Positions 1,084-37,412 of a stretch of 37,412 bases of DNA are shown here, in pieces. The notes below the pieces were generated by a model, which was not told the origin of the DNA, made no database searches, and saw nothing but the letters and a program-made list of their open reading frames with translations. The position numbers and the translations under genes are program-made. How positions within the stretch are numbered: position 1 is the stretch's first letter; each line of letters begins with the position of its first letter. This DNA comes from Rhynchopus sp. YZ270_cl-10. Taxonomy: Eukaryota. The stretch is from contig OZ037835.1 of assembly GCA_964035575.1 (NCBI GenBank), positions 2,232,001 to 2,269,412 on the forward strand, given 5' to 3'.

Positions 1084-2123
1084 GTCCATTAAAGCAACAG
1101 ATTTGATGTTTTGAGTAGTTGTGGTTAAATGTGGCGAAATTTCACGGCTATTTTATACATAGTACACGGTAGCATAGGGTATTTATATCCATTTTCAATT
1201 TTTAAATATCGCCAGATGCCCAGGACTGGCACACCCGGTACGCCACGTCGTTTTTGGGCCCCACTCTATCAGAGAATCATGTCAGATATGCAAGGTCTGT
1301 CTATTCCAAGTGACCCTGGGAAGCGACCGTTTACGACCCCTCAAACCCGTAATAACTGGATACCTACTGGCTGTATAAAACTGCCACACACATTTTAGGT
1401 ATTAAACACTTGTCAACCACACTGAACCCAAAACATCACCCCGTTTCTCGGCAGCAGTCTACCGGAGAATCACATCAGACTTGCTCGGACGACGCAAACT
1501 TGGCACTTGGGAGACTCCCCATTTACGACCCCGCAAACCCGTAATAATTAGATACAGAGAGGCACAAATAGTGGAAATTTTCTTTTTGACAAAATTTTAG
1601 GTGCTCTAACATGGAATCTGACCCCCATGTCCAGGTTATAAAAATGCTCTCTGAGTCCATTAAAGCAACAGATTTGATGTTTTGAGTAGTTGTGGTTAAA
1701 TGTGGCGAAATTTCACGGCTATTTTATACATAGTACACGGTAGCATAGGGTATTTATATCCATTTTCAATTTTTAAATATCGCCAGATGCCCAGGACTGG
1801 CACACCCGGTACGCCACGTCGTTTTTGGGCCCCACTCTATCAGAGAATCATGTCAGATATGCAAGGTCTGTCTATTCCAAGTGACCCTGGGAAGCGACCG
1901 TTTACGACCCCTCAAACCCGTAATAACTGGATACCTACTGGCTGTATAAAACTGCCACACACATTTTAGGTATTAAACACTTGTCAACCACACTGAACCC
2001 AAAACATCACCCCGTTTCTCGGCAGCAGTCTACCGGAGAATCACATCAGACTTGCTCGGACGACGCAAACTTGGCACTTGGGAGACTCCCCATTTACGAC
2101 CCCGCAAACCCGTAATAATTAGA
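1083..2123. repeat. 571-bp tandem duplication (~1.8 copies)
   Basis: Sequence from agtccattaaagcaacag recurs 571 bp later. The ORFs at 1129 and 1700 are identical. Confidence 0.95.
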
Positions 2124-2356
2124 AACCCGTAAACCCGCAAACCCGCAAACCCCGCAAACCCGCAAACCCGCAAACCCGCAAACCCGCAAACCCGCAAACC
2201 CGCAAACCCGCAAACCCGCAAACCCGCAAACCCGCAAACCCGCAAACCCGCAAACCCGCAAACCCGCAAACCCGCAAACCCGCAAACCCGCAAACCCGCA
2301 AACCCGCAAACCCGCAAACCCGCAAACCCGCAAACCCGCAAACCCGCAAACCCGCA
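2124..2356 (+). repeat. (AAACCCGC)n array, ~29 units
   Basis: Read directly; one AAACCCGT variant and one extra C. Confidence 0.98.
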
Positions 2357-4981
2357 CAAGAAGAAAGCTCGCTAATATGTGGTTTGGTTATACCTACTTT
2401 GTGTTGATGCGATTAAGGTATGAGTAATGATATGTAAACACGCAATGTAACCTAAAATTCACTGGAGAACCTGAATGGCACGGAAAAGCATGCATGAGGC
2501 ATGATGGGGTGGGTATGAGGCATTTTGCTCCGCCGTGAATTATTATGAATACTGCTGACATGAGTGATTAATATGTACAGAGTAATTGATTATAGTAACG
2601 TGTTATAAACTGTAGCAAGATGGTATAGTTTAGAGGTATTTCGCTCTGCAGCTTATTTATGGCAGGATTTGGGCTCTAATAACAACTGATTGCACTAAAT
2701 ACTGCTAAAAACAGCAGGTTTGTGTAGTTGAGAGGCTATTTGGCTCCGCAGAGAATATTGACTGCAATAAGCTGGTGTGGCCACAAACGCGAAAAGAGCT
2801 TGCTAAAATGGTGTGGTTGAGGCATTGGTGGTAGTAGTACAGAAAAGCTCACAAACGGAGGCATGGTCTGCGCGCAACGTTGGGATCTGACGCAATTTAT
2901 ACTAATATTTGTTCCTCTACGAATTTTTTAGATTTCTATGAAAATTGAAAGCTCTAACACTAACATTTGGCAGGAGGCTCTGGGTGAGAAGACATTTGAG
3001 TTTCCCCACGTACCACTTAACTGTGGAGATATTGGGTTCACAATTTGGGTATAGGATATAAAATCTACGACAGGATGTAGCTTCTAATATTATGCTAAAA
3101 ACAGCAGGTTCGTGTTATTGAATATTTGGATATTTTGCTCACGCAGCAAATATGCTGCCACATAACAGACTGGTGTGGTTGTGAACCTATTTGGCTCAAT
3201 ATCACTAATATGTGAGAAAAAAGCTCGCAACGTTTCACCATGTAAATAATATGGTGGATAAAAACTGATACATGCATTTTTAGGTTAAGAATATACCCTT
3301 TTCGCAGCGTAAATTGACCCCATCACAGCACGCACAGACTACGGAGAATCAAAAATCAAAATCTTTCAATGAATAATGTGGTTGAGTCTCAATGAGAGAC
3401 TATTTTATTTCTATGATATTAATACTGACATATTCGAATAGAGAAGATAGTTTGCTAAAGTGTTGGCGGATTTATTTCATTTGTGCATGGAAGAAAGGTT
3501 GCTAAAATGTAGGAGCAGGAGGGTGTGGTTGAGAGGCACTTTGCTCCACCGCTTATATTCACTGCTAATGTAGAACAGGCTGATTGTTATTAGGCTATTT
3601 AGATCCGCCGCTAATAATGACTGATTCTCAGAAAAATTATGTGTCGCAGGATGGTGTGGTTCAAAGGCTCCTCCGCTAATAATAACATAAAAATACGTCT
3701 GCAGTTCGCTTTTAGTGCCAGGTTTTTGACAGAACTTTTGCTCATAATATTCAGGAGTGAAGAAAGTCGGTAGATTATTTCACGGTGTGGGTGTGAAGAT
3801 AATTTGCTCTTCAGGTAATGGTAGATAATGGTACATGTGTATGTAAGAAGTCTTGGTAAAAATTGGCAGAGAGTTGTACCGACCGGTTTAGTCCAGAAAA
3901 ACTCTTCCATAATATTCCATTATAATAAAGCTCGCTGAAACATGACATCTCAGGTGTGGTTGAGAGACAGACTATTTGGCCACTACCAATAATGAGTACT
4001 ACCAGATAGCTATTGGTTAGAGCTGGTTTTGAACCTCATTTGGCCCCATATCATTTCTGAGTCTAATGTCTACAAATTATCTCGCTTTTTTGTGGCAGGT
4101 TTGTGTGGTTCAGCACCGCAAATGCTGACTTTCACATATTTCAATTTGGTGTAGTCTTAAAGCCATGTATCTATAAAGGCAATTACTCATAGATTTACCT
4201 GCACTTACTCATGCATGTACACGTAGAAGGACTCTTACATATGTTAATAGAGGGCGCTTGTGAGTATAAATAGCTCTGACACTACTAACGCGAACACAGT
4301 AACCTTACCTAAAGTACCTGACATCCTGGTGAGCACCCTCCTCGCTTCACTGATATGTTCTCTCTCTCGAGCATTCCCTCACCCAAAAATACATACAAAT
4401 CTACAAAAAAACTCCCAAATCAGGACTGCCTAACTTCAAAAATTTTTCTGGGGGGGCACTGCCCCCCCAGACCCCCCGTGCTCCACTCGCCTTCACGCTG
4501 CGCGTAAAGGCTCGCTCCGCTCTCCCTCGCGCCCCCACCACGCTGCGCGTGGTGGGTGCGCTCGGTCGAAATTTTGTACCCCTCAAACCCGTAATAATTA
4601 GATACCCAGAGGCAGAAATAGTGAAAAAAAATTATTTTGACCAAATTTTAGGTGCTCTAAAGTGGAATCTGACCCCCATGTCCAGGTTATAAAAATGCTC
4701 TATGAGTCCATTAAAGCAACAGATTTCACATTTTGAGTAGTTGTGGTTAAATGTGGCGTAATTTTACGGCTATTTTATACAGAATACATGGTAGTACAGG
4801 GTATTCGTACTCATTTTTAATTTTAAAATATTGCCAGAAAATGCTAACATCCAAACCCAGTACATTACGTCGTTTTTGGGCCCCAGTCTACCGGAGTGTC
4901 ATATCAGAAATACTGGGACCACGCGATCCAGCAATCCCGCAGCGTCGCCATTTTGTACCCCTCAAACCCGTAATAATTAGA
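2357..4981 (-). mobile_element. Putative non-autonomous Helitron-like unit (2.6 kb) between arrays
   Basis: The minus strand starts TCTAATTATTACGGG (4981) and ends CTTG (2357). It shares both end sequences and fragments of the 349-bp satellite (~3260-3360, ~4610-4700) with the other units. No credible ORF. Confidence 0.5.
2360..4140. repeat. Highly degenerate short tandem-like repeats (also 1-480, 24560-25060, 28791-29290)
   Basis: Recurrent motifs aaagctcgctaaaatgt, ggtgtggttgagagg and ttgctccgccgc..aatatt. Confidence 0.6.
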
Positions 4982-5101
4982 AACCCGCAAACCCGCAAAC
5001 CCGCAAACCCGCAAACCCGTAAACCCGCAAACCCGCAAACCCGCAAACCCGCAAACCCGCAAACCCGCAAACCCGCAAACCCGCAAACCCGCAAACCCGC
5101 A
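4982..5101 (+). repeat. (AAACCCGC)n array, 15 units
   Basis: Read directly; 120 bp, one AAACCCGT variant. Confidence 0.98.
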
Positions 5102-5309
5102 CGAGAAGTGAGCAACCATATGTGGCAGGCTGGTGTGATGTGTTACGGGCTGGTGTATCGAAAATGTTCCATTGTGTTATTCTTAGGGAATCTTGTTGGT
5201 GAGGTGAGTTTTTGGCATTTGAGTTCATGTTGCTAAAGTAGAGTTTATATTTATTGCGTGTGTGATAATTTATGAAAGTTTAGCAGTATTATCGTGTATG
5301 TGGCCGACT

Positions 5310-5560
5310 GCAGGTACCCTAAAGACTTCAGCTGGCCAAGTAACCTTTTGTATACTACGATTCATGGAGTTTACTACCACCATACGTCGAGGCAATTGCT
5401 CCGATGAAGCCACTACAGTAAACCATTTGAAAAAATATTTTTGGCCATTTTGGGATTTATGGACAGAAATTTCGACAAATCTGTCCATAAATTACGTTCT
5501 GTCCATAAAAGCCAGGATCCTGACCAAAAATCACTGTATTGAAAATACAGGGATTTTTGC
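5310..5560. repeat. Hairpin-bearing ~270-bp module, copy A
   Basis: Similar to 5650-5920 and 21560-21832; contains atttatggacaga...tctgtccataaat and the terminal hairpin with one mismatch. Confidence 0.9.
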
Positions 5561-5649
5561 CTGCATAATGCCCTTCCACACACCTGCATAACCTATTGCA
5601 GTATGTGTATTGATGTTTGCAGGTAACCTGTGGTTTGTGAGTTTTTATG

Positions 5650-5920
5650 CATTCCCTGTATAGGGCCTATAAGGGTACCCACAACCTCAGAGCCAAGTAA
5701 ATTAATGTCTACTACGTATTTTTGGGCCTACTACCACCATACTTCGACGCAATTACGCCGCTGAAGCCACTACAGTAAGCCATTTGAAAAAGTATTTTTG
5801 GCCATTTTGGGATTTATGGACAGAAATGTCGACAAATCTGTCCATAAATTACGTTCTGTCCATAAGAGCCAAAATCCCGACCAAAAATCCCTGTATTGAA
5901 AATACAGGGATTTTTGGCTG
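5650..5920. repeat. Hairpin-bearing ~270-bp module, copy B
   Basis: 13-bp inverted repeat at 5812-5824/5837-5849, a third arm at 5855-5865, and a perfect 17-bp stem ccaaaaatccctgtatt-gaa-aatacagggatttttgg at 5881-5917. Confidence 0.92.
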
Positions 5921-6229
5921 CATAAGGCAAAACCCCTAGCATGTACCTGACTGGTAAAATTCTCTCTATTGAGGGACATATTGTGGCTACTCTGTAGGGG
6001 TGTGTGTGGGTGTGTGTGGGGGGTTTGAGGAAAAATTGAAATATAAAATGTTCCTTTGTTTTTGTTCTCTCACATTTCATGCTTCATTTGTACTGTGTTC
6101 AAAACTAATAGGTATCCCCAAACCCACAATCCCAAAAAATTCCCACCAAACCCAACCCGCAAAAATATCCCCGATTGTTACCACTTCTTTCATTTTTCTT
6201 TTTTTATAATTATTACTTTTTTTGTATGT

Positions 6230-9200
6230 TCACAACTCCCAATCAACTTGATATAAAATCTCATTGGGAAATCCCCTATGCAATTGTTCCAAACCATTTT
6301 TGTGTGTTTCCAATTCACGTTCAGGAGACCCTGTACCAATATTAAAATGATCAGGGTTTGAAGTATGTAATAAAATAATCCTGTCTTTTGCAGGAATATT
6401 AGCAAGAACTTGTTCAGTAGACAAGTTGTTCCCCAAAAAGTGAAAAGATGAGGGCTTGTTATCTTGGTTCATTTTGACAATAGTTATTAGAACACATTTT
6501 AAGAGACTCACCAAGGCAAACTCAATCTGTTCTGCATAGTCTGATGTTGCGTACGTCCCATCAATCCTGCCAGTTATCCTGTTAATAAGGGCGTTGTAGG
6601 TGCCTACAATCGAGGATACGGTGTTAGCGTTTTCAGGTACAATAAGAGGATGATGTTTTATTGTAGTACTGTTCTGCACAACAAACAATTCCAATTCTCT
6701 TCTGAGTTGATTCCCTTGTCCTATCCTCTTTGTAATAGACTGGTCTACAGCATGGTAAAAGCAAGTACCATCCCCCAAAACCCTGGTAATGGAGAGCTTC
6801 GGCTTTTGTGCTGTTGTTGCTTCTGCTGATGTAGGGTTATTCTTCTTCCGCTTCTTAGGAGACTTATCTTCTGGGTCTCTCTTCCTCTTTTTGGCTACAT
6901 AGACAAGATCTTCAGCATCTTCAAACTGAATGCTCTCGCACTGCATTGGCATGGGGTCCCAGAATTTATGGTCGTCAGATGGTGGAGGCATCTTTGCTTG
7001 TTTGTGGGTCTGTTCAGAGTACTCTTTGTCAGTCATGACGTGGTAACTCTGTAGCATGGCCTCTTCTGCTTCAGTCAGCTGCATAAAGATGCCCTCGAGT
7101 CCACGGTCAGCAACAGATTTCAGCATGTCCTTGTACACAGGGTTTGACACTCTGTATGGCTCCACAATAGTTCTGGTTGATTTGGTCCATTTCTTCAGAG
7201 GCACTGCAACCTTGACATGCTCTGCCTTTGGGCATCTGCTCAGAGCAACGTACAACTGCCCATGTGCAAAGCACTGAGACTCTGTGAGGTCGAGTCCAAC
7301 CCTATCGAGGGTCTGTCCCTGAGACTTGTTAATTGTAGAGGCGAATGACAGTGCGACAGGAAACTGGACACGCTGCATGCTGAAACCAGCCTTCTTCTCG
7401 TCAGGAGTGTTCTTAACTCTGGGGATGTTCACTTCCGTTCCAACTCTTTTAGGGTCACCCACAATGATCCCCTGAATGTTGAGCTGTGTCACGCCAGTCA
7501 CAATAAACCTCGTTCCATTGCAGAGACCCTTTGGTGGGTTGAGGTTTTTAAGCAACATTAGAGGAGCACCAACCTTGACAGTGATGCAGTGGTCAGGTAT
7601 GCCTGTCTGCTGGTACGCATTCATCACGTCTGAGTCAATGGCAGATTCTCCCTCAACAGACTCCTCTGTGCATGTGTCCTTCCCTGTAAGCTGGAACTCA
7701 TGGAGTACTTCTTTTTGTTTCCCACACAGCCTCTTGAGACAAATGTTGTTCATTGCCTTCTGAGCTTTGTTAGTTGGTGCAAGGATCATGCCATTTCCAA
7801 CTACACCTTCTCCAATCAGAGGGAAGACGTGGGTGATTAAATCATCAGGTACAACATAATCCCCACAATCCTTTCGGTAGAGGTTTCTTGGGAGAGATAT
7901 GGAACCGTCTCTATCGTTGCACGACCCATCGCCAATGGTTCCCAGGTAGGTAGCCCAATTTTTGTCATCCTTCTGCCTCATTATCTCGACAAGGGACAGC
8001 ATAGTCATATTTTGGAATAGAGGAGAAGTATGCAGACAGTTTTTAAGCGTGGCACTCTTGTCTCCCTCAGTGACAGGAAGAATCTGCTTGAAGTCGCCAC
8101 CAAGAACCACAGTGATTCCACCAAACCACATGGCCTTTTCAGTAACCTTTCTGCAGGTTCTGTCGAGAAGTTCTATGTGGCCCCTGTTTGCCATCACCAC
8201 CTCATCAAAGACAATGAGATCCGTTGCGCGGATGAGATCTTCAATTTCTTTTGTCAGTTTGCAGACAGAGTGGTGGTCATCAGGGTACAGATCAAGAGGA
8301 AACTTGAATCTGTTGTGGGATGTTCTTCCTCCAGGCAGGAGCATTGCTGCAATACCAGAGCTTGCGACTGCAAGGGCAATGTTAGGACGATGTGTGTCAT
8401 CTTGCGCCGGAACCCCTCTGTGGCTTCTGCACCAACTGAGCATGGCCTGGTAGGTAAACGTTTTTCCAGTCCCTGCAGCACCCTGAAGCAGAAACATCTC
8501 GCCTTTGCCCTGAGTCACAGAGAGTTGAACACGCTGAACTGCTTCCATCTGTTTTGTATTGAGCTTAGGTTGAATCTTCTCCCACTCTTGCCACTGCTTT
8601 TCCATGTTGTAGATTTCATCCTTCATAACCCAAGACACTCCATCGTTCGCACTCCTCACAGCAGCTGTTGGTGTTGGGAGTCCAAAGACTTCTAGCTTTA
8701 CATCCGACCCACAAATGTTTCTCAACACATTCTGAATATCCAACAGTGCTTCATTTTCCTCCTGCTCAGATACCGTAGCCTCCCCATCCGGTGCAGTCTC
8801 TCCCTGCTTCAGAGGACGCTTGCACAGCTCCACCTTGTATGTCTTCCAGAGTTCTTTCATGTCATTAGGAGGAATAGCAAAGGAGTTGAGTAGAACAGCA
8901 AGGGTAAACCTGAGGCATCTTCCTGACACAGTGGTTTTGACTGCATCCACAAGTGTAAGCTTCACAAGTTCACCATCCTGAAGGAGCCCCATTTCATTTG
9001 CTGCATCCGTAAAGGACTCGCACTTTTTCCCTTCTACAGTCATCAGGTCATCAAAGCTAGTGGGTCCTTTTCTCACCATGAGGATAGTGCGCAGAGCCTG
9101 AAGCTCCTTATCCAAAACAGGGGTTCTGTACAGGCGACCAATAGCCAGAAGATGGGACTTTGCAGCTCGTGATCTGTCCGTTGTGACAAGCGACTCAGTC

Positions 9201-12200
9201 CTGGGGCAGTACACGTAGCTTTTCCTCAGGGTCCACTCTGCTTTATCTCTGGAGAAGGCAAAGTATTCAGGAACAGTGATGTAGTTCAGGGTTTGTATTC
9301 CCTGGTACTTGGAAGACGGGTCACGTTTTGCGTCACTATTTGCAGCAAACCAGGCTGTGAGTGTTGTGTCCGTGGCCTTGTCAAGAGCCTCTGCCTCCTT
9401 GCCAGGAAAGTAGTACAGCCTTTGCTGGCCTGCAAGATGAACATCAAGTCTGGTGACACTTGGGTCAATGTATCTCATCTTTGTTCCGAGAAGGTATCCA
9501 ATGGCCTCAAGTGACCCAATGTGTATGCCTGTCAGATAGCTCATGCACTCATCCGTTTTGTTTTTTTCCCCGTCTTTGGCTGAAACTGACACATTAGCAT
9601 ACTCATCGTCCTTGAACAGATACTTGAAGAGGTATCTGATGACAACTGGAGATCCAACAGCCTCTATGTTGAAGTGGCTCATGAACTGGGTGAGAAGAAC
9701 TATGTTGTAGGAAACAACATAGCGGTTGTCTCTACAGCTGGGGTGTACCTTCCCTTCTGTGGCCAGCTTTCTTGCCCGCTCTTGGTCTTTTTCCGCAACA
9801 GCGCTTGTTCTCCCATTTTCAGGCCGCATACCATAGCTGTACATTCCTGTCTCAGTTGCCAGGGTATCTTCCCGAAAGTTTTTAGGGTAGTGCTGTTTGC
9901 ACCGTGCGTTGCCGTCTGGGCCGGGCACCTTGCATCGTGCACTGGGCACAGTATCACACTTGGTGTGCATCATCTGCTCCGACACCAAGTTGTATAGCTC
10001 TTCTTGCGTTTCGGGATCAGGCAACTGGCAGGACACCGCCATGTCAAAAATGGTTGCAGACTTCGGCTTGTGCTCCTTGGAAACCCACAGAAGAAGATGC
10101 AAGTGGGGGAGTCCGCGCTTCTGGTACTCCACCACACGAACCATTGCCTGGTACGTCCCGAGTGCATTCTCTTTCAACTTTTTCTCAAGTTGATCCATCT
10201 TGAGGTTGAAGACTCGGTGCACAAGATCAGACCTGTCACAGGGTCTTTCTCCTGGACGCAGCTCCCTGAGAATCTCTGGCCAGTGTGGGTTGGCTGTCAT
10301 GGTCAGGAAATAATCGGGGCAGCCAAGACGGGCCTTCAACGCAAGTGAATCGTTGAGGTCTTGAATCCTAGCTCTCTTCCCACGCGGGTAGCTGGCATAG
10401 AGGGTGGTGGTGGCTGTTGTAGTGTCATTGGTCGCATCGTGTGTGGTGACGCGACGGTTTTCCACCACTGTAGTAACACGGGACTCTTCAAGGAATTCTT
10501 TTGTTGCATACTTCTTTACTATCTGCTGGCTGTGGTAAGATATGCGTTGCGTAATGGCACGGATGCCAAGCTGAAGGAAGAAGTATTCGGTCAGCTTGCG
10601 CCCTATCAGTGCAGGCCCTGGTTCCCCATCTGGGTTCTTCTCGGTCGCCCGTGAAAACAGGTGGAAGCAGCCATACTCCTGTGCTGACACACCACTGTAG
10701 GGGTTTGGCGTTGCTTCATCTTTTCGACTGTGTCTCCAACCTGTACTGTCCTTTGGACACACATGGATAAGGGGAAAACACAGTGGCTCAAACCTCGCAT
10801 CAAAATCCGATATCTTTCTGCTGTATCTATCGCTTCCTTCACCTTCACCTTCAGCTTCTCCCTGCATAATAACGCTGTACTGCTGCCGGCCCCAACCTGC
10901 TGCGTATTTGTGATCATCTGTTCCAGTACTGACAGTATATACAGCCCGCAATTCATCTTCTGCAGCGGCGTTTGCGTACTCCCGTCCCGTCTTCTCAGGT
11001 CCTCGCAGATCGTCAAAGTTAATGGCCACATGTGTGTTCTCTTCGGCACTGTCCATCAGAACTGAGGCTCTCCTGAACATCCTGACATAGCAATTGTCTT
11101 TCAGCATGGTCATGATGTCCTGGTAGAGAGTAGTGTCGCGTTCCAGTTCTGGGATCCTCTCCATCTCTTGCAAGCCTTTCAAGGCGCGGTCCTGCTCGTT
11201 GTATCCACCAACAAACCAGGTTTGGTTTCTTGTTTCCGCATCGTCAGACAGGCCCATAATTTTCTTCACCCCTTTTCCTTTTACAACTATGTTGTGTATT
11301 CCGCGTGTGTTGGAAAACAACTTGTGGGGGGTATGCAATGCCTTGGCCATCTGATGATAAGAATTCAGGCGGTATGAATTCTTGAGAAACATTTGATCCG
11401 AGAACAATCTTTTGTGGTTGTCGTTCTCAAATTCAATTGGCCCAGGGATGTCTCTCGCCTTGATCCTGTTGCAGCAAATTCCATATCTCCCTTCTCCTCG
11501 GACCTCACCAGAGAAGAGCTTTGCACCACATTTTCTACAGACAGAATTCATCCCCCCAATGTCAGCATAAGACACGCATCCATTTGTGTAGTCTTCAAGC
11601 TTCATTGCAGCTGAGTGGAGGCTTGGGTCAAGACTTCTCCCACACATTTCCGAAGTAGAAACCCTATTTTCGAATTCTGCAACTAATGCTTGACAGATGG
11701 GTCCGTTTGTTCTCAGCGTATCGGACCTCTTCTCGAGCCATCTTTCGCAGATGTCATTTGCACAGTTCTCTATTGATCCAAGAATGTACGGAGAAAGTCC
11801 TTGCATGCCATGACTTTTTTCTTCCTCAAGCAACTTGATTCTCTTCTTGTCGGAGTATGTGAGAGAATCAAGAGAACGGTTCCAGCGAGACTCTAACTCA
11901 GGATGTACAGCAAAGAGATCCCTGAACGAAGATTTATTAGTTATTGTTCTAATAGAAGCAATAACGTACGCAAGACGGCATTTTGCAACGTGCGTGATGT
12001 GCATGTACCTGAAGAGACAATGTGGATCATGTATTTTTGTTTTGTTGTATCTCTGTAAACACCACTCACAGACATCGTATTGAGTGTGTGGTGCAGAGCT
12101 TTCGTACTGGCTGCAGAAAAAATTTATATCTTCTAACTGCATTTGTGATGTTTCAGCCGAGAGACGCAAAGATTCACGCATGTCCGACAGGTATCTAGAC

Positions 12201-12289: not shown

Positions 12290-12607
12290 AGTTATGGTGT
12301 GTTATGTTTTTCTGTTTGTAATGACTGATGATGGATAAAAATGTTCTCAGAATTATTGGAAAAATAGGACATTCCTTTTTTGTTGTTGTATTATGTGATT
12401 TGATATTCTGTGTCTGACAAAATATACAAATATATTGGAAGAGTAGGAAAAATTCGGAAAACAAATAAATAACAAACAAAAAGTAACTGAGACAAAAAAA
12501 CCCGAAAACCCGCAAGCCCACAAAGACATATCCCCACTTATCGCTATTTTGTATTTTGTTTTCTTTTTTTATCCCTTATGTTAATGTTCACAACTCTATC
12601 ACACAAA

Positions 12608-13084
12608 TCATTGCATCAATAGACCTGTCACAGGCTCCCCCTTGAATAAGTATTTAAACAAATACTTAACAACAAGGACCCCGCGCACTTCCTCATTGTT
12701 TCTGTGGCGCCGATATTTCAGGAGAAGATTGTATTGAACCACCCACCTGTCGTTCATCAGATACTGACTGAAAGCTTTGTAGAGGTTTGGGTGTGCTAAT
12801 GGTCCCGGGAGTTGTACAATGTGATCCACATTTAAAGGGTTCTTCGGTGATGTTCTGTTGTCTTTCCAAAGAATTGCGTGAGCATGAGGCAGACCCCTCT
12901 TCTGGTACTCCATCACCACCACTATTGCAATGTGATCCCCAAGAACATTTTTTTCTCTGATATAATTTACAAGCTCCTTCACCTTGAGGTAGAAGATGCG
13001 GTGCACCAGATCCGGACGGTCAATAGCTGTCTCCCCTTCTAGCAGATTAGACTGAATCTCATACCACATTGGGTTGAACGTCAT
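12608..13084 (-). CDS. Stand-alone miniature Helitron Rep (HUH core only), 158 aa; may be a pseudogene
   Basis: MTFNPMWYEI, DRPDLVHRIF, EYQKRGLPHAHAILW and KYLFKYLFK are all in one frame from ATG to TGA. Confidence 0.8.
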   Translation of the reverse strand: MTFNPMWYEIQSNLLEGETAIDRPDLVHRIFYLKVKELVNYIREKNVLGDHIAIVVVMEYQKRGLPHAHAILWKDNRTSPKNPLNVDHIVQLPGPLAHPNLYKAFSQYLMNDRWVVQYNLLLKYRRHRNNEEVRGVLVVKYLFKYLFKGEPVTGLLMQ

Positions 13085-13357
13085 AGTTTGTTTGTGTGTT
13101 ATTCTTCCTTCTGCTGATAAATAAAAATGTACTTTGTTATTTCAGAAAAAAAAATTTTTTTCTATTTTTTTATTGTATCTGATATTTTGTGTCTGAAAAA
13201 ATATACAAATAAAACGGAAAAATTAAAAACAGAAGACAATGCTCGAGCGACACCTTTCTCTTTTATGGTGTCATAAAACGGGAGGGAAAAAGTAAAGATT
13301 GTTTGTTGTTTGTTGTTTGCTTCCACACCGCTTCTGTTTCAGATGAAAGTTTTTTTT

Positions 13358-13410
13358 AAGGCTGTCCTTACAAGCGTATGCCAAAACGCTCGCCTCATGG
13401 GTGTGGACTT
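13358..13410 (-). ncRNA. 53-nt conserved structured motif, copy 1 (copy 2 at 19748-19800, + strand)
   Basis: 46/53 identical to the other copy in inverted orientation, with compensatory changes in the central stem. Function unknown. Confidence 0.5.
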
Positions 13411-13545
13411 TTTTTTATAAAATATAAATTGAGTAGGGGAAAAAAAGCGGGGGAATGCGCAGAAGCACTATTTTTTACGGGGATCATTTTGTCAAATACT
13501 ACAACTACTAAAAAAATTTACTGTAAAAAATAATGATAAAAATTC

Positions 13546-20505: not shown

Positions 20506-20605
20506 ACCTCACTGAACTGAGCCCATACCAACCCCCTCCGCTCACTCCACCCACTCCACCCACATATTACTACAGTAACACAAAAGTGACACATATATTT
20601 TCACC

Positions 20606-21832: not shown

Positions 21833-21839
21833 TTTGCTC

Positions 21840-24130: not shown

Positions 24131-24133
24131 AGT

Positions 24134-24330: not shown

Positions 24331-24374
24331 CCTTGCCATCCATTTGACCTGAAACCCGGTAATATATATAGTGT

Positions 24375-24558
24375 AACCCGCAAACCCGCAAACCCGCAAA
24401 CCCGCAAACCCGCAAACCCGCAAACCCGCAAACCCGCAAACCCGCAAACCCGCAAACCCGCAAACCCGCAAACCCGCAAACCCGCAAACCCGTAAACCCG
24501 CAAACCCGCAAACCCGCAAACCCGCAAACCCGCAAACCCGCAAACCCGCAAACCCGCA
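24375..24558 (+). repeat. (AAACCCGC)n array, 23 units
   Basis: 184 bp; variant T at 24493. Confidence 0.98.
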
Positions 24559-27500: not shown

Positions 27501-28366
27501 ATTGACCCCACCACAGCACGCACAGACTCCGGAGAGCCAAAATCAAAAAATTTTTTTTTCGATTTTTTGTAGGCAAAAATTGCTGGGAAAAATTTTTTGG
27601 TCAAAATCCTGGTTTTTGGGGTCTCATACATGTGTATGACCAAATTTTAGGTGGTCAAAAGTGGAGTCTGACCCCCATGTCCAGGTTATGGAAATGTCAT
27701 ATGAAGCCATTGCTGAAGGAATTTTGCACTTTTGCGCATCAACAATTATGTACTGGGCATTTTTCCCACACAAATTTGACCCAGTACTCAAGGTCAATTT
27801 GACCTTGGTTCTTCTCTCAGGGTCTTCTGACCAATTTTTAACATGTCTAAAATGGTATCTGACCCCCATGTCCAGGTCATAAAAACGCCCAATCAGTCCA
27901 TTAAAGCCACAGATTTGATGTTTTGAGTAGTTGTGGTTAAATGTGGCCCAATTTTCCCAGCCAAAAAATGACCCCAAAAATCACGAAAAAAAATATTTTA
28001 AAGCCGATACACTTACACACCTAAATTTGGCCCAATATGTCCAATGTGGTCCTCCAGGGTTGCAATGGCCTCATTTTATGGGCATACTGGCCATATTTCA
28101 TACTTATGTCACATTTTGAAATTTTCGTCACATACAATACACACACCTTAGAACCACAAAATATCGTCAATTCCTTCACAAAAATAGCCGTGAAATGCCG
28201 CACCCATTTTAGGTATCTTCAGAAAATGCTAACATCCAAACCCAGTACATTACGTCGTTTTTGGGCCCCAATCTACCGGAGTGTATTATCAGAAATACTG
28301 GGACCACGCGATCCAGCAATCCTGCAGCGTCGCCATTTTGTACCCCTCAAACCCGTAATAACTAGA
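24559..28366 (-). mobile_element. Putative non-autonomous Helitron-like unit, 3808 bp
   Basis: Minus strand reads TCTAGTTATTACGGG...CTTCTAG. Near-identical to 28791-32249 apart from one extra 349-bp monomer. Confidence 0.6.
25348..27757 (+). repeat. 349-bp satellite, ~7 monomers
   Basis: aaaatcatgtaaaaactga recurs about every 349 bp. Identical ORFs lie 698 bp apart (25856/26554, 26067/26765). Confidence 0.96.
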
Positions 28367-28790
28367 AACCCGCAAACCCGCAAACCCGCAAACCCGCAAA
28401 CCCGCAAACCCGCAAACCCGCAAACCCGCAAACCCGCAAACCCGCAAACCCGCAAACCCGCAAACCCGCAAACCCGCAAACCCGCAAACCCGCAAACCCG
28501 CAAACCCGCAAACCCGCAAACCCGCAAACCCGCAAACCCGCAAACCCGCAAACCCGCAAACCCGCAAACCCGCAAACCCGCAAACCCGCAAACCCGCAAA
28601 CCCGCAAACCCGCAAACCCGCAAACCCGCAAACCCGCAAACCCGCAAACCCGCAAACCCGCAAACCCGCAAACCCGCAAACCCGCAAACCCGCAAACCCG
28701 CAAACCCGCAAACCCGCAAACCCGTAAACCCGCAAACCCGCAAACCCGCAAACCCGCAAACCCGCAAACCCGCAAACCCGCAAACCCGCA
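28367..28790 (+). repeat. (AAACCCGC)n array, 53 units
   Basis: 424 bp; variant T at 28725. Confidence 0.98.
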
Positions 28791-31700
28791 CTAGAAGAAA
28801 GCTCGCTAAAATGTGGCAGGATGGTGTGGTTGTGAGGTATATGGCTCCGCCGCGAATTAATGTTGAAAAGATTAGTATCATTCAGCAAATGCAGAAATGA
28901 TGTGCCTATTCATTCATAGAAAACCTGAAATGACACGGAAAAGTCGAAAAAATGAGGGAGGATGTAGTTTTGAGGCACGTTGCTACGCCGCGAATTATTG
29001 ATACATGCTGCTGACATGACTGATACAGTAAAAGATTATCAGAAAAGGTCACTGAAATGTAGCAGGATTTACCCACTAAATATTTGGACAAAAACTGCTA
29101 AATTTAGCAGTTTAGCAGTGTGTTTAAGGAAGGATATTTTGCTCCGCCGCTAATATTGACACATAAGAGACTGTGGTTGTTAAGCTGTTTGGATCCGCCG
29201 CAAAATTACTCACAGGGATAAGAAAGCTCGCCAACATGTAGCAAGCTTGTCTGGTTGTGGTGTGGTTGCTCCGCCGCTATTAATTTTTCAGGTTTGCATG
29301 ACTATAAGAAAGTTTGCACAGTTTGCACAATGTTATTTACTATCATCTCCGGGGAAGACTGCTACCAGTGTCAAAATAATGGTACTTGTGTGCTTGGCTA
29401 TTTTCCACACATCTTAACGTAAGGAAGGCACGTTTATTTTGAGACTTCCCATGTTTGACAAAGTTGTGTGGCAAGCGATAATCGTTGTGCTTCCAATGAA
29501 CAACGACACTGTTCTAAATACTGACTTGTGCTGGGAAGCCTGTCATCAATGTCAAAAATATGGTGGTTTTCTGTTTTCTAAAATCATGTAAAAACTGATA
29601 CATGCATTTTAAGTCAAAAATACCCATTTCTCAGTGCAAATTGACCCCACCACAGCACGCACAGACTCCAGAGACCCAAAATCAAAATTTTTTTTTTTTG
29701 ATTTTTTGTAGGCAAAAATTGCTTGGAAAATTTTTTGGTCAAAAATCCTGGTTTTTGGGGTATCATACATGTGTATGACCAATTTTCAGGTGGTCAAAAG
29801 TGGTGTCTGACCCCCATGTCCAGGTTATGGAAATGTCCTATGAAGCCATTGCGAAGGAATTTGGTACTTTTGAGCATTGCACATTATGTACTGACCAAAA
29901 AACCCACACAATACCCCAAAAACACCAAAAATCATGTAAAAACTGAAACATGAATTTTAGGTCAAAAATACCCATTTCTCAGCGCAAATTGACCCCATCA
30001 CAGCACACACAGACTCCGGAGAGCCAAAATCAAAAATTTTTTTTTTCGATTTTTTGTAGGCAAAAATTGCTGGGAAAAATTTTTTGGTCAAAATCCTGGT
30101 TTTTGGGGTCTCATACGTGTGTATGACCAAATTTTAGCTGCTCTAATGTGGTGTCTGACCCCCATGTTCAGGTTATGGAAATGTCCTATGAAGCGATTGT
30201 CGAAGGAATTTTGTACTTTTGAGCATTGCACATTATGTACTGACCAAAAAACCCACCTAAAACCCCCAAAACACCAAAAATCATGTAAAAACTGATACAT
30301 GCATTTTAGGTCAAAAATACCCATTTCTCAGCGCAAATTGACCCCATCACAGCACACACAGACTCCGGAGACCCAAAATCAAAAATATTTTTTTTCGATT
30401 TTTTGTAGGCAAAAATTGCTGGGAAAAATTTTTTGGTCAAAATCCTGGTTTTTGGGGTCTCACACATGTGTATTACCAAATTTTAGGTGGTCAAAAGTTG
30501 AGTCTGACCCCCATGTTCAGGTTATGGAAATGTCCTATGAAGCGATTGTCGAAGGAATTTTGTACTTTTGAGCATCAGAAATTAGGTACTGACCAAAAAA
30601 CCCACCTAAAACCCCAAAAACACCAAAAATCATGTAAAAACTGATACATGCATTTTAGGTCAAAAATACCCATTTCTCAGCGCAAATTGACCCCATCACA
30701 GCACACACAGACTCCGGAGACCCAAAATCAAAAATATTTTTTTTCGATTTTTTGTAGGCAAAAATTGCTGGGAAAAATTTTTTGGTCAAAATCCTGGTTT
30801 TTGGGGTCTCACACATGTGTATTACCAAATTTTAGGTGGTCAAAAGTTGAGTCTGACCCCCATGTTCAGGTTATGGAAATGTCCTATGAAGCGATTGTCG
30901 AAGGAATTTTGTACTTTTGAGCATTGCACATTATGTACTGACCAAAAAACCCACCTAAAACCCCCAAAACACCAAAAATCATGTAAAAACTGATACATGC
31001 ATTTTAGGTCAAAAATACCCATTTCTCAGCGCAAATTGACCCCATCACTGCACGCACAGACTCCGGAGAGCCAAAATCAAAATTTTTTTTTTTCGATTTT
31101 TTGTAGGCAAAAATTGGTGGGAAAATTTTTTTTGGTCAAAAATCCTGGTTTTTGGGTCTCATACATGTGTATGACCAAATTTCAGGTGGTCAAAAGTGGA
31201 GTCTGACCCCCATGTCCAGGTTATGGAAATGTCCTATGAAGCCATTGCCGAAGGAATTTTGTACTTTTGAGCATCAGAAATTAGGTACTGACCAAAAAAC
31301 CCACCTAAAACCCAAAAACACCAAAAATCATGTAAAAACTGATACATGCATTTTAGGTCAAAAATACCCATTTCTCAGCGCAAATTGACCCCACCACAGC
31401 ACGCACAGACTCCGGAGAGCCAAAATCAAAAAATTTTTTTTTCGATTTTTTGTAGGCAAAAATTGCTGGGAAAAATTTTTTGGTCAAAATCCTGGTTTTT
31501 GGGGTCTCATACATGTGTATGACCAAATTTTAGGTGGTCAAAAGTGGAGTCTGACCCCCATGTCCAGGTTATGGAAATGTCATATGAAGCCATTGCTGAA
31601 GGAATTTTGCACTTTTGCGCATCAACAATTATGTACTGGGCATTTTTCCCACACAAATTTGACCCAGTACTCAAGGTCAATTTGACCTTGGTTCTTCTCT

Positions 31701-32249
31701 CAGGGTCTTCTGACCAATTTTTAACATGTCTAAAATGGTATCTGACCCCCATGTCCAGGTCATAAAAACGCCCAATCAGTCCATTAAAGCCACAGATTTG
31801 ATGTTTTGAGTAGTTGTGGTTAAATGTGGCCCAATTTTCCCAGCCAAAAAATGACCCCAAAAATCACGAAAAAAAATATTTTAAAGCCGATACACTTACA
31901 CACCTAAATTTGGCCCAATATGTCCAATGTGGTCCTCCAGGGTTGCAATGGCCTCATTTTATGGGCATACTGGCCATATTTCATACTTATGTCACATTTT
32001 GAAATTTTCGTCACATACAATACACACACCTTAGAACCACAAAATATCGTCAATTCCTTCACAAAAATAGCCGTGAAATGCCGCACCCATTTTAGGTATC
32101 TTCAGAAAATGCTAACATCCAAACCCAGTACATTACGTCGTTTTTGGGCCCCAATCTACCGGAGTGTATTATCAGAAATACTGGGACCACGCGATCCAGC
32201 AATCCTGCAGCGTCGCCATTTTGTACCCCTCAAACCCGTAATAACTAGA
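28791..32249 (-). mobile_element. Putative non-autonomous Helitron-like unit, 3459 bp
   Basis: Same ends as 24559-28366; length differs by exactly 349 bp. Confidence 0.6.
29580..31640 (+). repeat. 349-bp satellite, ~6 monomers
   Basis: Same monomer; identical ORFs at 30299 and 30648. Confidence 0.96.
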
Positions 32250-32497
32250 AACCCGCAAACCCGCAAACCCGCAAACCCGCAAACCCGCAAACCCGCAAAC
32301 CCGCAAACCCGCAAACCCGCAAACCCGCAAACCCGCAAACCCGCAAACCCGCAAACCCGCAAACCCGCAAACCCGCAAACCCGCAAACCCGCAAACCCGC
32401 AAACCCGCAAACCCGCAAACCCGCAAACCCGCAAACCCGCAAACCCGCAAACCCGCAAACCCGCAAACCCGCAAACCCGCAAACCCGCAAACCCGCA
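32250..32497 (+). repeat. (AAACCCGC)n array, 31 units
   Basis: 248 bp, read directly. Confidence 0.98.
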
Positions 32498-32707
32498 CAA
32501 GAAGAAAGCTCGCTAAAATGTAGGAGGCTGGTGTGGTTGTGAACAGAACTTATTTTTTATTGTCTGAAGGTTTTGCATTTTTACAAATGTGAATGCCGAA
32601 AAAATTGAATAGAAAAATGAATTAAACTTGGCTCACCCCTCATTTCTCTTTTCATAGCACTTTTGTACTCACACACCAAAAACAGGTGAACTATTTCTCA
32701 AAAAACT

Positions 32708-33989
32708 ATGAACACCATGAAGATTAAGCGGAAGCCAGTGCCTCCCGGAGATTTGTCTTCCACCTCAAGGTGATACAAATTTGTATAACTGTGTCCACCA
32801 GGAGGTCATCTCTGCCATTGAGGAGTCAGTTGGGGGAATAAAGATGAAGGTCAGTAAGGAAAGGAGGAATCAGCTGAAGCGGGACCTGAGGCTTACAGAG
32901 GCTGTATATGCAAAGGCCATGCATGAACGTGCAGCAAACCCTTCAGAAAACCCTGCAGTGGTGTGTTCCCCTGATGCTGATGGAAGCCCCATTGATGATA
33001 AAGAACACGAAATCAACAACCCGGCATGTGGAAGGTCTCTTGTAGTAACTCCCTGGACAAAGGATGAAGAAGAACAACCGATGGATTTCTATCCTTTTAC
33101 ATTTCCAGAGGGGGGATGGTATGTTAGCATTACATTATGGTTACAGTAATTATTGTACATTTTTAATTAAATAATACACTACAATTTATACAGGGAATAT
33201 ATCCACAACAACGTTCCAGAAGCTTCTCATCCACAAAAAAATGTAACAACTACAGTTTCTGAAAAAAATAGGTATGTTTTTTTCGTGGTCAACAACTTTA
33301 AAACCATTACCAATATTTTACAGGAACAATGAGAATAATATTCAACATGTTCTGAGCAGGTTCAACCTCGGACAAATTGACGTTACTGGTGATGGAACGT
33401 GTTTCTATCACGCCATACAGCAGCTCCTCACTGGAAAAAGAAATGATGGTCATGCTCTACGCAGAAGATTTGCAGAGTTCTTGCTCAGGAATGAGATTAT
33501 GATCCAGGAGCATCCCTTACTTTTTGATGATGAAGAGAAAAAAAAAAGGTATGTAGCATTTGTATTTGTGCAAACCCGCAAACCCGCAAACCTAAACTTT
33601 TCTACCACACCTGTAAACAAAACAGGAACTTTGATGACCTTCTTCAACGCGTCACAAATAATGCCGATGACAGTTATGCGCAGGAGGTAGAAGTAGCACT
33701 GATGTCTCTCATGCTTAGGTCTCTTATCACAGTAGTCACTTCTAGGACCTATGAGACAGAAGGATATTCTTGCTTTCATTTTTTGCCAAAGGGGCAATCT
33801 CCTGAAGATGTTCTTATGCAAATACCATCAGAAAAGAGACTGCTGATAGTGCAAACTTATCAACCTCCCCACTTCAACATTGGTACAGGAACTCCAGAAA
33901 ATGTACTGAAAGCACATAAAAAAGCCCTAATTTACCCCACATTTCCAGACAATCACCTTTCTGACTTTCAACCGGGTGATCTTGACTAA
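32708..33989 (+). CDS. Stand-alone OTU-like cysteine protease paralogous to the RepHel C-terminus; introns 33119-33193, 33272-33323, 33549-33625; 5' exon structure unresolved
   Basis: Three phase-2 gtatg...cag introns join the ORF pieces into ...VTGDGTCFYHAIQQ...EHPLL...YAQEVEVALMSL...FHFL...PPHFNIGTGTPE. This is colinear with RepHel VLGDGTCFYHAVDQ...HHPLI...YAEQIEFALVSL...FHFL...PDHFNIGTGSPE. The ATG at 32708 is not in frame by the obvious splice. Confidence 0.8.
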
Positions 33990-34739
33990 AAAAATTTTTT
34001 CCTTTTTTTCTTTACAGTAAATTACTGTAAAAGACTTTTATTTTTATTTTTATTTTTTTTTTCTTCCCAGCCGGAGAGAATCAGATTAAATCTCTTGTGA
34101 TGAAGAAATATTTGTTTGAACATGTTCATTGGATTGAAAAAAAATATGAGAAAAAAAAAACTGGGTAAGCTTAGCCCATCTAAAAAAAAGGATTTTATTT
34201 TTGTTTCTGTTTCACTGTTTTTTTAAACTGTTTTTGTGGAGTTCGTTTAGTTTTAAAAAAAATCAATTAGTTTGGAAATTGTAGCAGTTTTTATTTTTAC
34301 AGAGACTTTTTGACCGGTTTGATCAGCAGTTTTTGTTGTTTTTTTCTTCCCAGCCGGAGATACTCTCTTGTGATGAAGAAAATATTTTTGTCTTGGATTA
34401 AAAAAAATAAGGAAATATAGGGTTTGCGGGTTTTCGGGTTTGCGGAAGAGGTTAAAACATAGCTTTAAAAAAAGACTACACCTTGAAGAAGGCGCTCACT
34501 TTGGCGGGTGAGAGTATTGTCATGCCATAAAAATAAAAAGATCAAAAATGAGAAAAGGAAAAAGAAAAAGAAAAAGAAAAAACACACAAAATGACTGAAT
34601 AGCTCACGCACTTTTACTGTTTCTTTTTTCCTATCCTCATCACCACCACTTCCCACACAGAAACCTACACATACCTGATATTCAATTCATCCATACAAAT
34701 GAATTTTGTAATCTTGATCAGTGCACAGATTATGTACCT

Positions 34740-35260
34740 GGGAAAATTTTTTTGGTCAAAATCCTGGTTTTTGCGGTCTCACACGTGTGTATGACCAAAT
34801 TTTAGGTGGTCAAAAGTGGAGTCTGACCCCCATGTCCCGGTCATAAAAATTTCCTGTGAAGCCATTGACGAAGGAACTTTGCACTTTTGATCACTGCACA
34901 CTATGTACTGACCAAAAAACCCACACAAAACACCAAAAACACCAAAAATCATGAAAAAACTGATCCATGCATTTTAGGTCAAAAATACCCATTTCTCAGC
35001 GCAAATTGACCCCACCACAGCACGCACAGACTCCGGAGAGCCAAAATCAAAAAATTTTTTTTTCGATTTTTTGTAGGCAAAAATTGCTGGGAAAAATTTT
35101 TTGGTCAAAATCCTGGTTTTTGGGGTCTCATACATGTGTATGACCAAATTTTAGGTGGTCAAAAGTGGAGTCTGACCCCCATGTCCAGGTTATGGAAATG
35201 TCATATGAAGCCATTGCTGAAGGAATTTTGCACTTTTGCGCATCAACAATTATGTACTGG
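34740..35260 (+). repeat. 349-bp satellite, ~1.5 monomers
   Basis: Same monomer sequence; the first part is more diverged. Confidence 0.9.
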
Positions 35261-35870
35261 GCATTTTTCCCACACAAATTTGACCCAGTACTCAAGGTCA
35301 ATTTGACCTTGGTTCTTCTCTCAGGGTCTTCTGACCAATTTTTAACATGTCTAAAATGGTATCTGACCCCCATGTCCAGGTCATAAAAACGCCCAATCAG
35401 TCCATTAAAGCCACAGATTTGATGTTTTGAGTAGTTGTGGTTAAATGTGGCCCAATTTTCCCAGCCAAAAAATGACCCCAAAAATCACGAAAAAAAATAT
35501 TTTAAAGCCGATACACTTACACACCTAAATTTGGCCCAATATGTCCAATGTGGTCCTCCAGGGTTGCAATGGCCTCATTTTATGGGCATACTGGCCATAT
35601 TTCATACTTATGTCACATTTTGAAATTTTCGTCACATACAATACACACACCTTAGAACCACAAAATATCGTCAATTCCTTCACAAAAATAGCCGTGAAAT
35701 GCCGCACCCATTTTAGGTATCTTCAGAAAATGCTAACATCCAAACCCAGTACATTACGTCGTTTTTGGGCCCCAATCTACCGGAGTGTATTATCAGAAAT
35801 ACTGGGACCACGCGATCCAGCAATCCTGCAGCGTCGCCATTTTGTACCCCTCAAACCCGTAATAACTAGA

Positions 35871-37412
35871 AACCCGCAAACCCGCAAACCCGCAAACCCG
35901 CAAACCCGCAAACCCGCAAACCCGCAAACCCGCAAACCCGCAAACCCGCAAACCCGCAAACCCGCAAACCCGCAAACCCGCAAACCCGCAAACCCGCAAA
36001 CCCGCAAACCCGCAAACCCGCAAACCCGCAAACCCGCAAACCCGCAAACCCGCAAACCCGCAAACCCGCAAACCCGCAAACCCGCAAACCCGCAAACCCG
36101 CAAACCCGCAAACCCGCAAACCCGCAAACCCGCAAACCCGCAAACCCGCAAACCCGCAAACCCGCAAACCCGCAAACCCGCAAACCCGCAAACCCGCAAA
36201 CCCGCAAACCCGCAAACCCGCAAACCCGCAAACCCGCAAACCCGCAAACCCGCAAACCCGCAAACCCGCAAACCCGCAAACCCGCAAACCCGCAAACCCG
36301 CAAACCCGCAAACCCGCAAACCCGCAAACCCGCAAACCCGCAAACCCGCAAACCCGCAAACCCGCAAACCCGCAAACCCGCAAACCCGCAAACCCGCAAA
36401 CCCGCAAACCCGCAAACCCGCAAACCCGCAAACCCGCAAACCCGCAAACCCGCAAACCCGCAAACCCGCAAACCCGCAAACCCGCAAACCCGCAAACCCG
36501 CAAACCCGCAAACCCGCAAACCCGCAAACCCGCAAACCCGCAAACCCGCAAACCCGCAAACCCGCAAACCCGCAAACCCGCAAACCCGCAAACCCGCAAA
36601 CCCGCAAACCCGCAAACCCGCAAACCCGCAAACCCGCAAACCCGCAAACCCGCAAACCCGCAAACCCGCAAACCCGCAAACCCGCAAACCCGCAAACCCG
36701 CAAACCCGCAAACCCGCAAACCCGCAAACCCGCAAACCCGCAAACCCGCAAACCCGCAAACCCGCAAACCCGCAAACCCGCAAACCCGCAAACCCGCAAA
36801 CCCGCAAACCCGCAAACCCGCAAACCCGCAAACCCGCAAACCCGCAAACCCGCAAACCCGCAAACCCGCAAACCCGCAAACCCGCAAACCCGCAAACCCG
36901 CAAACCCGCAAACCCGCAAACCCGCAAACCCGCAAACCCGCAAACCCGCAAACCCGCAAACCCGCAAACCCGCAAACCCGCAAACCCGCAAACCCGCAAA
37001 CCCGCAAACCCGCAAACCCGCAAACCCGCAAACCCGCAAACCCGCAAACCCGCAAACCCGCAAACCCGCAAACCCGCAAACCCGCAAACCCGCAAACCCG
37101 CAAACCCGCAAACCCGCAAACCCGCAAACCCGCAAACCCGCAAACCCGCAAACCCGCAAACCCGCAAACCCGCAAACCCGCAAACCCGCAAACCCGCAAA
37201 CCCGCAAACCCGCAAACCCGCAAACCGCAAACCCGCAAACCCGCAAACCCCGCAAACCCGCAAACCCGCAAACCCGCAAACCCGCAAACCCGCAAACCCG
37301 CAAACCCGCAAACCCGCAAACCCGCAAACCCGCAAACCCGCAAACCCGCAAACCCGCAAACCCGCAAACCCGCAAACCCGCAAACCCGCAAACCCGCAAA
37401 CCCGCAAACCCC
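35871..37412 (+). repeat. Long (AAACCCGC)n array, ~190 units, runs off the window
   Basis: Read directly; two small indels near 37225-37250. Confidence 0.98.

Follow-up and report, generated by a model that had tools for sequence, protein, structure and literature searches.

Why should transposable elements with unrelated interiors and differing ends follow one another in a simple repeat, all joined to it at the same base? This question is raised by a 37,412-nucleotide stretch of the Rhynchopus sp. YZ270_cl-10 genome (assembly GCA_964035575.1, contig OZ037835.1, positions 2,232,001 to 2,269,412), here called the window, in which Helitron-like units, one of them encoding a RepHel transposase, lie between arrays of an 8-mer that reads AAACCCGC on the plus strand and GCGGGTTT on the minus strand. 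We propose that a Helitron family probably inserts into the G-rich strand of (GCGGGTTT)n at GCGGGTT|TGCGGG (the bar marks the joint) without target duplication. The evidence supports the Helitron identity of the units, their boundaries and a T|T junction in fixed phase. The strongest remaining point is that elements with differing ends and unrelated interiors all lie in a repeat without an AT site.

Six arrays set apart five complete units on one strand (U2, U4, U5, U6 and U7) and a partial unit, U1, at the left edge of the window. As the earlier note had held, the minus-strand orientation of all units matches that of the RepHel gene. U4 (5102..24374; 19,273 bp, (A)C...CTCG) carries RepHel together with cargo genes and is likely autonomous. 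U1 (1..2123) is non-coding, with its 5' TC at 2123 and its 3' end beyond the window, and has within it an exact duplication of 469 bp as well as three copies of the 5' motif. U2 (2357..4981; 2625 bp, TC...CTTG) is likewise non-coding and has one internal 5' motif, at 4602. The non-coding U5 (24559..28366; 3808 bp, TC...CTAG) holds 6.9 copies of a 349-bp satellite, and U6 (28791..32249; 3459 bp), a 98% copy of U5, holds 5.9. U7 (32498..35870; 3373 bp, TC...CTTG) is 97.5% like U5 and U6 over its 5' 1133 bp and different in its 3' part. Neighbouring units have unrelated interiors and differing ends; at least three distinct 5' and four distinct 3' end types occur, and the last 60 nucleotides share 34-47 identical positions between types.

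On the minus strand, all 11 junctions (six of six at 5' ends, five of five at 3' ends) conform to GCGGGTT|TGCGGG. Five of the six 5' junctions read GCGGGTT|TCTA[AG]TTATTACGGG (2123, 4981, 28366, 32249 and 35870), and the sixth, that of U4 at 24374, reads GCGGGTT|ACACTATATATATTACCGGG. At the opposite side, TGCGGG follows CTTG in two of the five units (2357 and 32498), CTCG in one (5102) and CTAG in two (24559 and 28791). All positions given for these starts and ends in the earlier note were confirmed, as was its statement that the flanks rejoin into an unbroken repeat: in silico excision of each of the five complete units leaves a continuous 8-mer array without target duplication, in a test that is blind to duplications of whole 8-mers. 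A test for empty sites is uninformative, because an empty site looks identical to plain array.

The 5' end of U4 deserves separate mention. It lacks TC, as had been noticed before, its first base being A instead of T, yet it represents a divergent version of the family 5' motif and sits exactly in phase. Its alignment score is equalled in the window by 40-mers at the nine known copies of the motif, at the end itself and at a short repeat in U7 (33595-33596) only, and by 71 of 20,000 random draws. TC is present at five of the six outer 5' ends, and the RepHel unit has AC in this copy. Within the family 5' end lies a near copy of the 8-mer repeat, and the 5' ends fold weakly. For the 3' ends, the reported absence of a subterminal hairpin was borne out, with no consensus pairs about 11 nucleotides before the end and positive z-scores (+0.17 to +0.81) for all four end types. 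Subterminal or asymmetric inverted repeats and end palindromes were not noticed in the end sequences, which were inspected by eye with no dedicated search. Reading the units on the plus strand, with ends CTAG, TTAG and CTGG, was rejected, as it gives no 5' TC and no T after the 3' end and opposes RepHel.

All six arrays are given here on the minus strand. A1 (2124..2356; 233 bp) has 29 units, one of them 9 bp long; A2 (4982..5101; 120 bp) has 15; A3 (24375..24558; 184 bp) has 23, including one variant unit 72 bp from the 3' junction of U5; A4 (28367..28790; 424 bp) has 53, among which the variant of A3 recurs 72 bp from the 3' junction of U6; A5 (32250..32497; 248 bp) has 31; and A6 (35871..37412; 1542 bp) has at least 192 and continues past the window edge, its irregular units being confined to its last 200 bp. 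Ninety-eight percent of the units are perfect, and a 13-mer of the repeat is matched 325 times in the window, with 0.00 matches expected from 100 shuffles. The repeat is G-rich and fits a G-quadruplex pattern. That four arrays measure exact multiples of 8 (120, 184, 424 and 248) is correct, but the shared phase by itself entails it, and it adds no further evidence. Nor is the array a fixed internal microsatellite, an alternative raised in the earlier note, since it spans 15 units in one copy and more than 192 in another. The 8-mer is also found in short stretches inside units, in both orientations (14726-14738, 33570-33596 and 34420-34446), and may thus be common in this genome as a short repeat or a site of protein binding as well.

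The RepHel open reading frame (ORF; 6230..12289, minus strand) is unbroken and encodes 2019 aa from the first ATG. It comprises zinc-finger-like cysteines, the HUH motif EYQKRGLPHLH, YLFKY tyrosines, a Pif1 helicase and a C-terminal GDGxC...H. Pfam matches are to Helitron_like_N and PIF1, and in the alignment with the Helraiser transposase (PDB 7LCC; E 5e-119) the HUH motif, both catalytic tyrosines and Walker A are aligned. In Rep motif 2 (EYQKRGLPHLH), L stands between G and P. The C-terminal GDGxC...H is OTU-protease-like; it has no Pfam match here, and a relative (P0006) has a Pfam OTU match. No apurinic/apyrimidinic (AP) endonuclease family was among the 12 Pfam matches at E 0.01. A targeting domain was looked for in the N-terminal 550 residues and none was found: the Atlas returned unnamed clusters and Foldseek no match at E 0.001, the structure model of the N-terminus having a predicted local distance difference test (pLDDT) score of 49. 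RepHel is accompanied by the ends described above, which bound the RepHel unit itself; the earlier note had allowed that they might never do so.

In a quick Rep tree of 92 rows, from 98 Rep regions tried and without HLE2 or Paramecium sequences, the 13 nearest relatives form one branch (Shimodaira-Hasegawa-like approximate likelihood ratio test 94) separate from the Helitrons of plants, animals and fungi. The closest RepHel cluster has 29 members, of which the 15 listed occupy at least 13 contigs of 0.15-1.8 Mb, and near-full-length variants with 95-98% identity lie on many contigs. The same branch holds other multi-copy RepHel families, namely P0008 (70 members), P0010 (34) and P0011 (5), some of them on shared contigs.

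Public sequencing runs were searched for further copies. The RepHel region is partly present in nine runs from six studies, of which four were examined, one per study and all as assembled contigs; the runs cited below are X1, X4, X5 and X6. None of the runs listed as containing the region is of RNA, which is uninformative as to expression. Contig assembly drops rare flanks, so the run data give no fraction of array-joined ends. When U2 was the query, with 12 array bases at either end, X5 (2255 bp, one difference) and X6 yielded contigs that begin at 2346, 11 bases into the array. At the 3' end of U4, variant contigs with five and eight differences begin 7 bases into the array (X1 and X5). No loose ends were found at the U2 termini among the 24 listed, with 146 more beyond these, or at the U4 3' terminus among the 21 listed, with 38 more, and a 3'-to-5' end joint of U2 is not among the joints listed for the assembled contigs. 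A contig of X6 departs from the U4 sequence behind 5119, which we read as another interior behind that 3' end. In X4, 2375 is joined to 4925 across 17 other letters; we read this as a mini-unit of about 93 bp, composed of 2357-2375 and 4925-4981 and with its 3' side still on the array; such a mini-element, if true, would define the minimal cis sequences. The contigs lend support to the presence of array-joined copies elsewhere, as far as assembled reads can.

Wider searches returned no further relatives. Rfam gave no match to the window, no relative was confirmed among 18 pattern matches in a related-locus search of viral contigs, and no viral contig held four tandem 8-mers. Forty-six metagenome matches to an 18-base 5' motif were dismissed as chance, having neither array nor blast match to the window. 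Twenty-five prokaryote loci with 4-10 tandem 8-mers were also rejected; they have no RepHel, and their blast matches are only to short repeat stretches.

Four further copies of the 5' motif, overlooked in the earlier note, lie inside units on the minus strand, at 1331..1360, 1523..1552 and 1902..1931 in U1 and at 4573..4602 in U2. Each has the flank GTA|TC, with A at position -1 in four of four and no array flank, and together they stand at the start of two duplicated blocks, one of 192 bp and one of 379 bp. The internal copies confirm TC as the 5' boundary and suggest a GGT(T/A)|T preference, not an absolute 8-mer rule. In U2 the internal 5' motif is followed by a GC-rich block of 215 bp (4356-4571) that contains strong palindromes and is found, 94% identical, in U1 (869-1083); it is possibly the remnant of a nested small element.

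Several points weigh against insertion directed at the repeat. Uniform orientation is forced, because a T follows Helitron 3' ends and T is missing from the C-rich strand. Each repeat unit offers two T|T sites, which puts the chance agreement of five distinct units at about (1/2)^4, or 1 in 16, if T|T were the sole requirement, and only about five distinct units are seen within the window. U5 and U6 have a variant repeat unit in common at 72 bp and were thus copied together with the array, not inserted independently. The 5' motif is not confined to arrays, as its internal A|TC-flanked copies demonstrate. The 3' hairpin is missing, three of the five 3' ends are not CTRR and the 5' end of U4 is without its T. 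The run contigs have 7-11 array-side bases, below the 31-base bridging rule; the further loose ends (146 and 38) lie beyond those listed; X5 leaves the U2 5' junction uncovered; and one run is possibly the source of the assembly. Contigs shared by RepHel and the cargo genes described below are no proof of a shared unit, and their proxy label weakens the count. In sum, the proposal that the family targets the 8-mer at T|T is supported in part, with respect to identity, boundaries and junction, and orientation and phase are weaker evidence than had been claimed for them.

Under targeted insertion, RepHel would, by analogy with Helraiser, make its nick at the 5' TC and displace a single strand as far as CTNG, and the element would be joined to a target cut before a T. 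In a repeat without an AT site, the enzyme would use a GGT(T/A)|T-type site; it would prefer the G strand of the repeat and cut before the third T. With such a preference, the four internal copies at GTA|TC would be accounted for as earlier insertions of the family into itself. Speculatively, the near copy of the repeat in the 5' end might allow one recognition surface to read both donor and target. U1, U2 and U5-U7, which are non-coding and share the ends of U4, would borrow its RepHel. A hairpin-less 3' end would make termination leaky, such that some copies would carry downstream repeat units, and local duplication (U5/U6) and slippage would lengthen the chain.

Leaky termination is also the core of the alternative that survives best, in which the repeat is borne by the element itself. 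Read-through past the hairpin-less CTNG would add it as a 3' tail, termination would fall inside the array at a site resembling the nick site, and rolling-circle concatemers would form with no pre-existing host array. The missing 3' hairpin accords with this, given that passages of the Helraiser report (PMC4778049) describe raised read-through upon hairpin loss and ends at CTTG among others, CTTG being found also in maize. The variant unit common to U5 and U6 at 72 bp would fit co-transfer of at least nine units, and the near copy of the repeat within the family 5' end points the same way. We nevertheless consider an element-borne repeat improbable, as unrelated interiors and different ends in neighbours are unexpected from one concatemer, array lengths vary widely with one above 1.5 kb, and adjacent different elements in one phase would still require targeting.

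Much of what U5, U6 and U7 have in common could also arise if a single ancient insertion had occurred by chance and the element-plus-array block had then been amplified by unequal recombination and subtelomere-like exchange. U5 and U6 are 98% identical and share the array variant, U7 has their 5' 1133 bp, the internal satellites show heavy recombination, and slippage keeps multiples of 8. Recombination alone is nonetheless quite improbable: end types differ at up to 26 of the last 60 nucleotides, and the 5' end of U4 is strongly diverged, yet junction bases and adjoining array are intact in each case, and an unbroken 2019-aa RepHel with many 95-98% variants points to recent transposition. Finally, the family might be an ordinary A|T Helitron dispersed throughout the genome, the window being a hotspot where a few copies used T|T since the array offers no AT. 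In its favor, A precedes the TC of the four internal 5' motifs, as is canonical, TT is among the most frequent of the non-AT sites of Helraiser (which make up 46 of 1751 insertions, in the passages available of PMC4778049), and single-copy flanks at low depth would be compatible with the run data. We regard it as very unlikely: each of the 11 outer junctions of the window is with an array, the U2 contigs of X5 and X6 enter the array unbranched at the terminus, no terminal loose end occurs among those listed for the deep runs X1 and X4, and the internal copies amount to two duplicated blocks and not four events.

Insertion targeted at the repeat has its nearest counterpart in Paramecium aurelia. 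Chromosome-end Helitrons of these ciliates have telomeric-repeat flanks of variable length and a fixed orientation, and repeat-specific integration has been proposed for them (Arnaiz et al. 2026, PMC13085455). According to passages of the same report, they form a third Helitron clade with a stem-loop and CCAA end and a proposed C-strand entry, and no captured genes appear in those passages. Both systems have autonomous and ORF-less elements, a simple repeat on both sides, one orientation and internal satellites. Unlike in Paramecium, the ORF here is 6 kb long with canonical RGLPH, the TC...CTNG ends are hairpin-less, the units lie on the G-rich strand with a T|T junction exact to the base, whole genes appear to have been captured, and a telomeric nature of the repeat is no more than possible. 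The diplonemid family works like the Paramecium Helitrons, which does not imply membership in their clade.

In passages of PMC4778049, Helraiser is described as nicking at the 5' TC, peeling by its helicase, cutting at the 3' tetranucleotide and forming a circle, with strand transfer without duplication; AT-rich surroundings are preferred. With canonical Helitrons (HLE1), as portrayed in parts of PMC4778049 and PMC5876387, the present family has in common HUH, two tyrosines, Pif1, 5' TC, a T after the 3' end and the lack of duplication, and two of its five ends are CTAG. It differs in using T|T in a G-rich repeat (T in six of six outer 5' flanks) and not A|T in AT-rich DNA, in having no 3' hairpin, in its CTTG and CTCG ends, and in forming its own branch in the quick Rep tree (13 of 92 rows). 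Because neither the A|T target nor the 3' hairpin is found, we do not file it as a plain canonical member. Rep motif 2 distinguishes canonical Helitrons, marked by L, from Helentrons, marked by S (RGSPH), in the passages available of PMC4067079, and multiple 5' termini of the Fusarium Helitrons (FoHeli) are attributed to self-insertion in those of PMC5148889. A TT target, internal satellites, an OTU-like motif and, for FoHeli, multiple 5' termini liken the family to Helentron/Helitron2 (HLE2), DINE-1 and FoHeli; unlike HLE2, it has L and not S in Rep motif 2, and no AP endonuclease family was found. Likeness to Helentrons is limited to the TT target and the OTU-like motif.

Chains of elements at, or replacing, a simple terminal repeat are formed by TRAS/SART and by HeT-A/TART, which employ a reverse transcriptase and an endonuclease. 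The likeness lies in the ordered element chain in a simple repeat, the enzyme here being an HUH nuclease with a helicase. Lepidopteran Helitron-like elements reportedly disrupt (GAAA)n microsatellites, a finding ascribed to Coates et al. in 2010. In Hydractinia, Helitrons accumulate near chromosome ends as decayed tandem subtelomeric arrays, for which no simple-repeat target is described in the parts available of the preprint (bioRxiv 10.1101/2024.11.21.624632). IS91 is a target-specific HUH rolling-circle element that makes no duplication and has a four-base target, CTTG and CTCG being its target and terIS cleavage tetranucleotides in the passages available of PMC13181058. The same tetranucleotides are the non-canonical 3' ends here (2357 and 32498; 5102), possibly by coincidence. 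IS91 differs in being bacterial and is not known to have a helicase domain. No published report of Helitron targeting in diplonemids was found in the literature searched.

U4 carries several genes besides RepHel. Just upstream of the intact RepHel gene sits a relic Rep fragment of a second RepHel family (12608..13141, minus strand), identical at 116 of 159 residues (73%) to P0010 and at 73 of 150 to the RepHel of the window. It is joined in U4 by a C2H2 zinc-finger ORF (13546..13896, minus strand) with a weak Pfam match below the curated cut-off and a cluster of four variants, an ORF (15054..15722, plus strand) with a weak Torus match (E 0.007, also below the curated cut-off), and a 410-aa ORF of no known family (15918..17150, plus strand), which has no Pfam or Atlas match and belongs to a cluster of 20 close variants. 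An intact actin gene (17998..19171, plus strand) has two exons separated by a 46-bp GT-AG intron (18661-18706), and an intact Arf GTPase gene (20606..21151, plus strand) encodes 181 aa and has a cluster of 12 variants. Actin exon 1 is 98% identical to Diplonema papillatum, 99% to Rhynchopus euleeides (over 93% of the query) and 90% to the euglenid Entosiphon, by which the host lineage is identified, at the level of sequence similarity, as diplonemid. Across variants with the U4 intron, 220-221 of the 221 residues of actin exon 1 are identical, and Arf variants are 97-100% identical; actin and Arf in U4 may thus be multi-copy genes that function.

Actin with the U4-type intron occurs at 23 places on contigs, and three copies on one other contig carry a different intron, a pattern that would fit capture from a host locus followed by spread. 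Contigs in common with the RepHel list number 7 of 11 for Arf, 5 of 14 for the 410-aa ORF and 3 of 7 for actin; a further two RepHel clusters have 2 of 12 and 2 of 5. In these counts contigs are told apart by their length as a proxy, the lists are partial and more than one assembly is possibly pooled. U4 is likely a dispersed unit with whole-gene cargo, which would have captured whole host genes and then spread to many contigs.

Other repeats fill the interiors. U4 contains 12 copies of a 177-bp satellite (22012..24120), of which an inverted solo copy lies near 14645-14827, and, just inside its 5' end, a G-rich 9-mer repeat (24134..24320, minus strand) that matches a G-quadruplex pattern. The 349-bp satellites (25348-27755, 29580-31638 and 34738-35277) have a segment of about 70 bp in common with the 5' block of U1 and U2. 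In U7, OTU-like coding pieces (33274..33989, plus strand), 44% identical over 50 aa to the RepHel C-terminus, are split by a probable intron with two to three 8-mer copies (33570-33596).

The earlier note had called the repeat telomere-like, a description that its polarity does not favor. At its right end the window closes with 1.5 kb of array that is C-rich on the plus strand and whose irregular units fall within the final 200 bp, as at the end of a contig. A right end made by telomerase would be G-rich on the plus strand; were 37412 the chromosome end, the G-rich strand would point inward. Hence either the contig breaks in a long internal array, any chromosome end lying leftward, or the array is not telomeric. 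The array may be telomeric, centromeric or interstitial. Tandem TTAGGG, TTTAGGG and TTGGGG arrays are absent from the window. Euglena telomerase makes TTAGGG, in passages of PMC3622300 that do not cover diplonemids. The text passages and seven supplements of PMC10161547, as covered by term, mention Helitron-like ORFs once and report no repeat as telomeric, PMC13598402 yielded nothing when searched by term, and no published report of a diplonemid telomere repeat, or of the 8-mer as a telomere, was found in the literature searched. That the 8-mer is the telomere repeat of this diplonemid is possible, if on balance doubtful. It is unlikely that the fuller picture applies as a whole, in which (TTTGCGGG)n would be a diplonemid telomere or centromere repeat replacing the TTAGGG of Euglena, and a G-strand-specific Helitron of canonical type would build and extend this compartment by rolling-circle transposition, taking repeat units with it through 3' read-through, and would thereby have relocated working actin and Arf genes to about twenty sites or more.

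Few DNA transposons of eukaryotes are target-specific; Pokey, CryptonV and Dada are named as such (PMC8869645). Repeat-targeting Helitrons are not new in kind, as those of Paramecium are in print, the only clear Helitron case found in the literature searched. The family described here likely represents a second, independent origin of repeat targeting, by a RepHel of canonical type and in a distant lineage. If the array is telomeric or centromeric, it would provide a handle on diplonemid chromosome structure. Given a junction defined to the base, an enzyme that is intact and a mini-element of possibly 93 bp, the choice of target by a Helitron becomes testable with short oligonucleotides.

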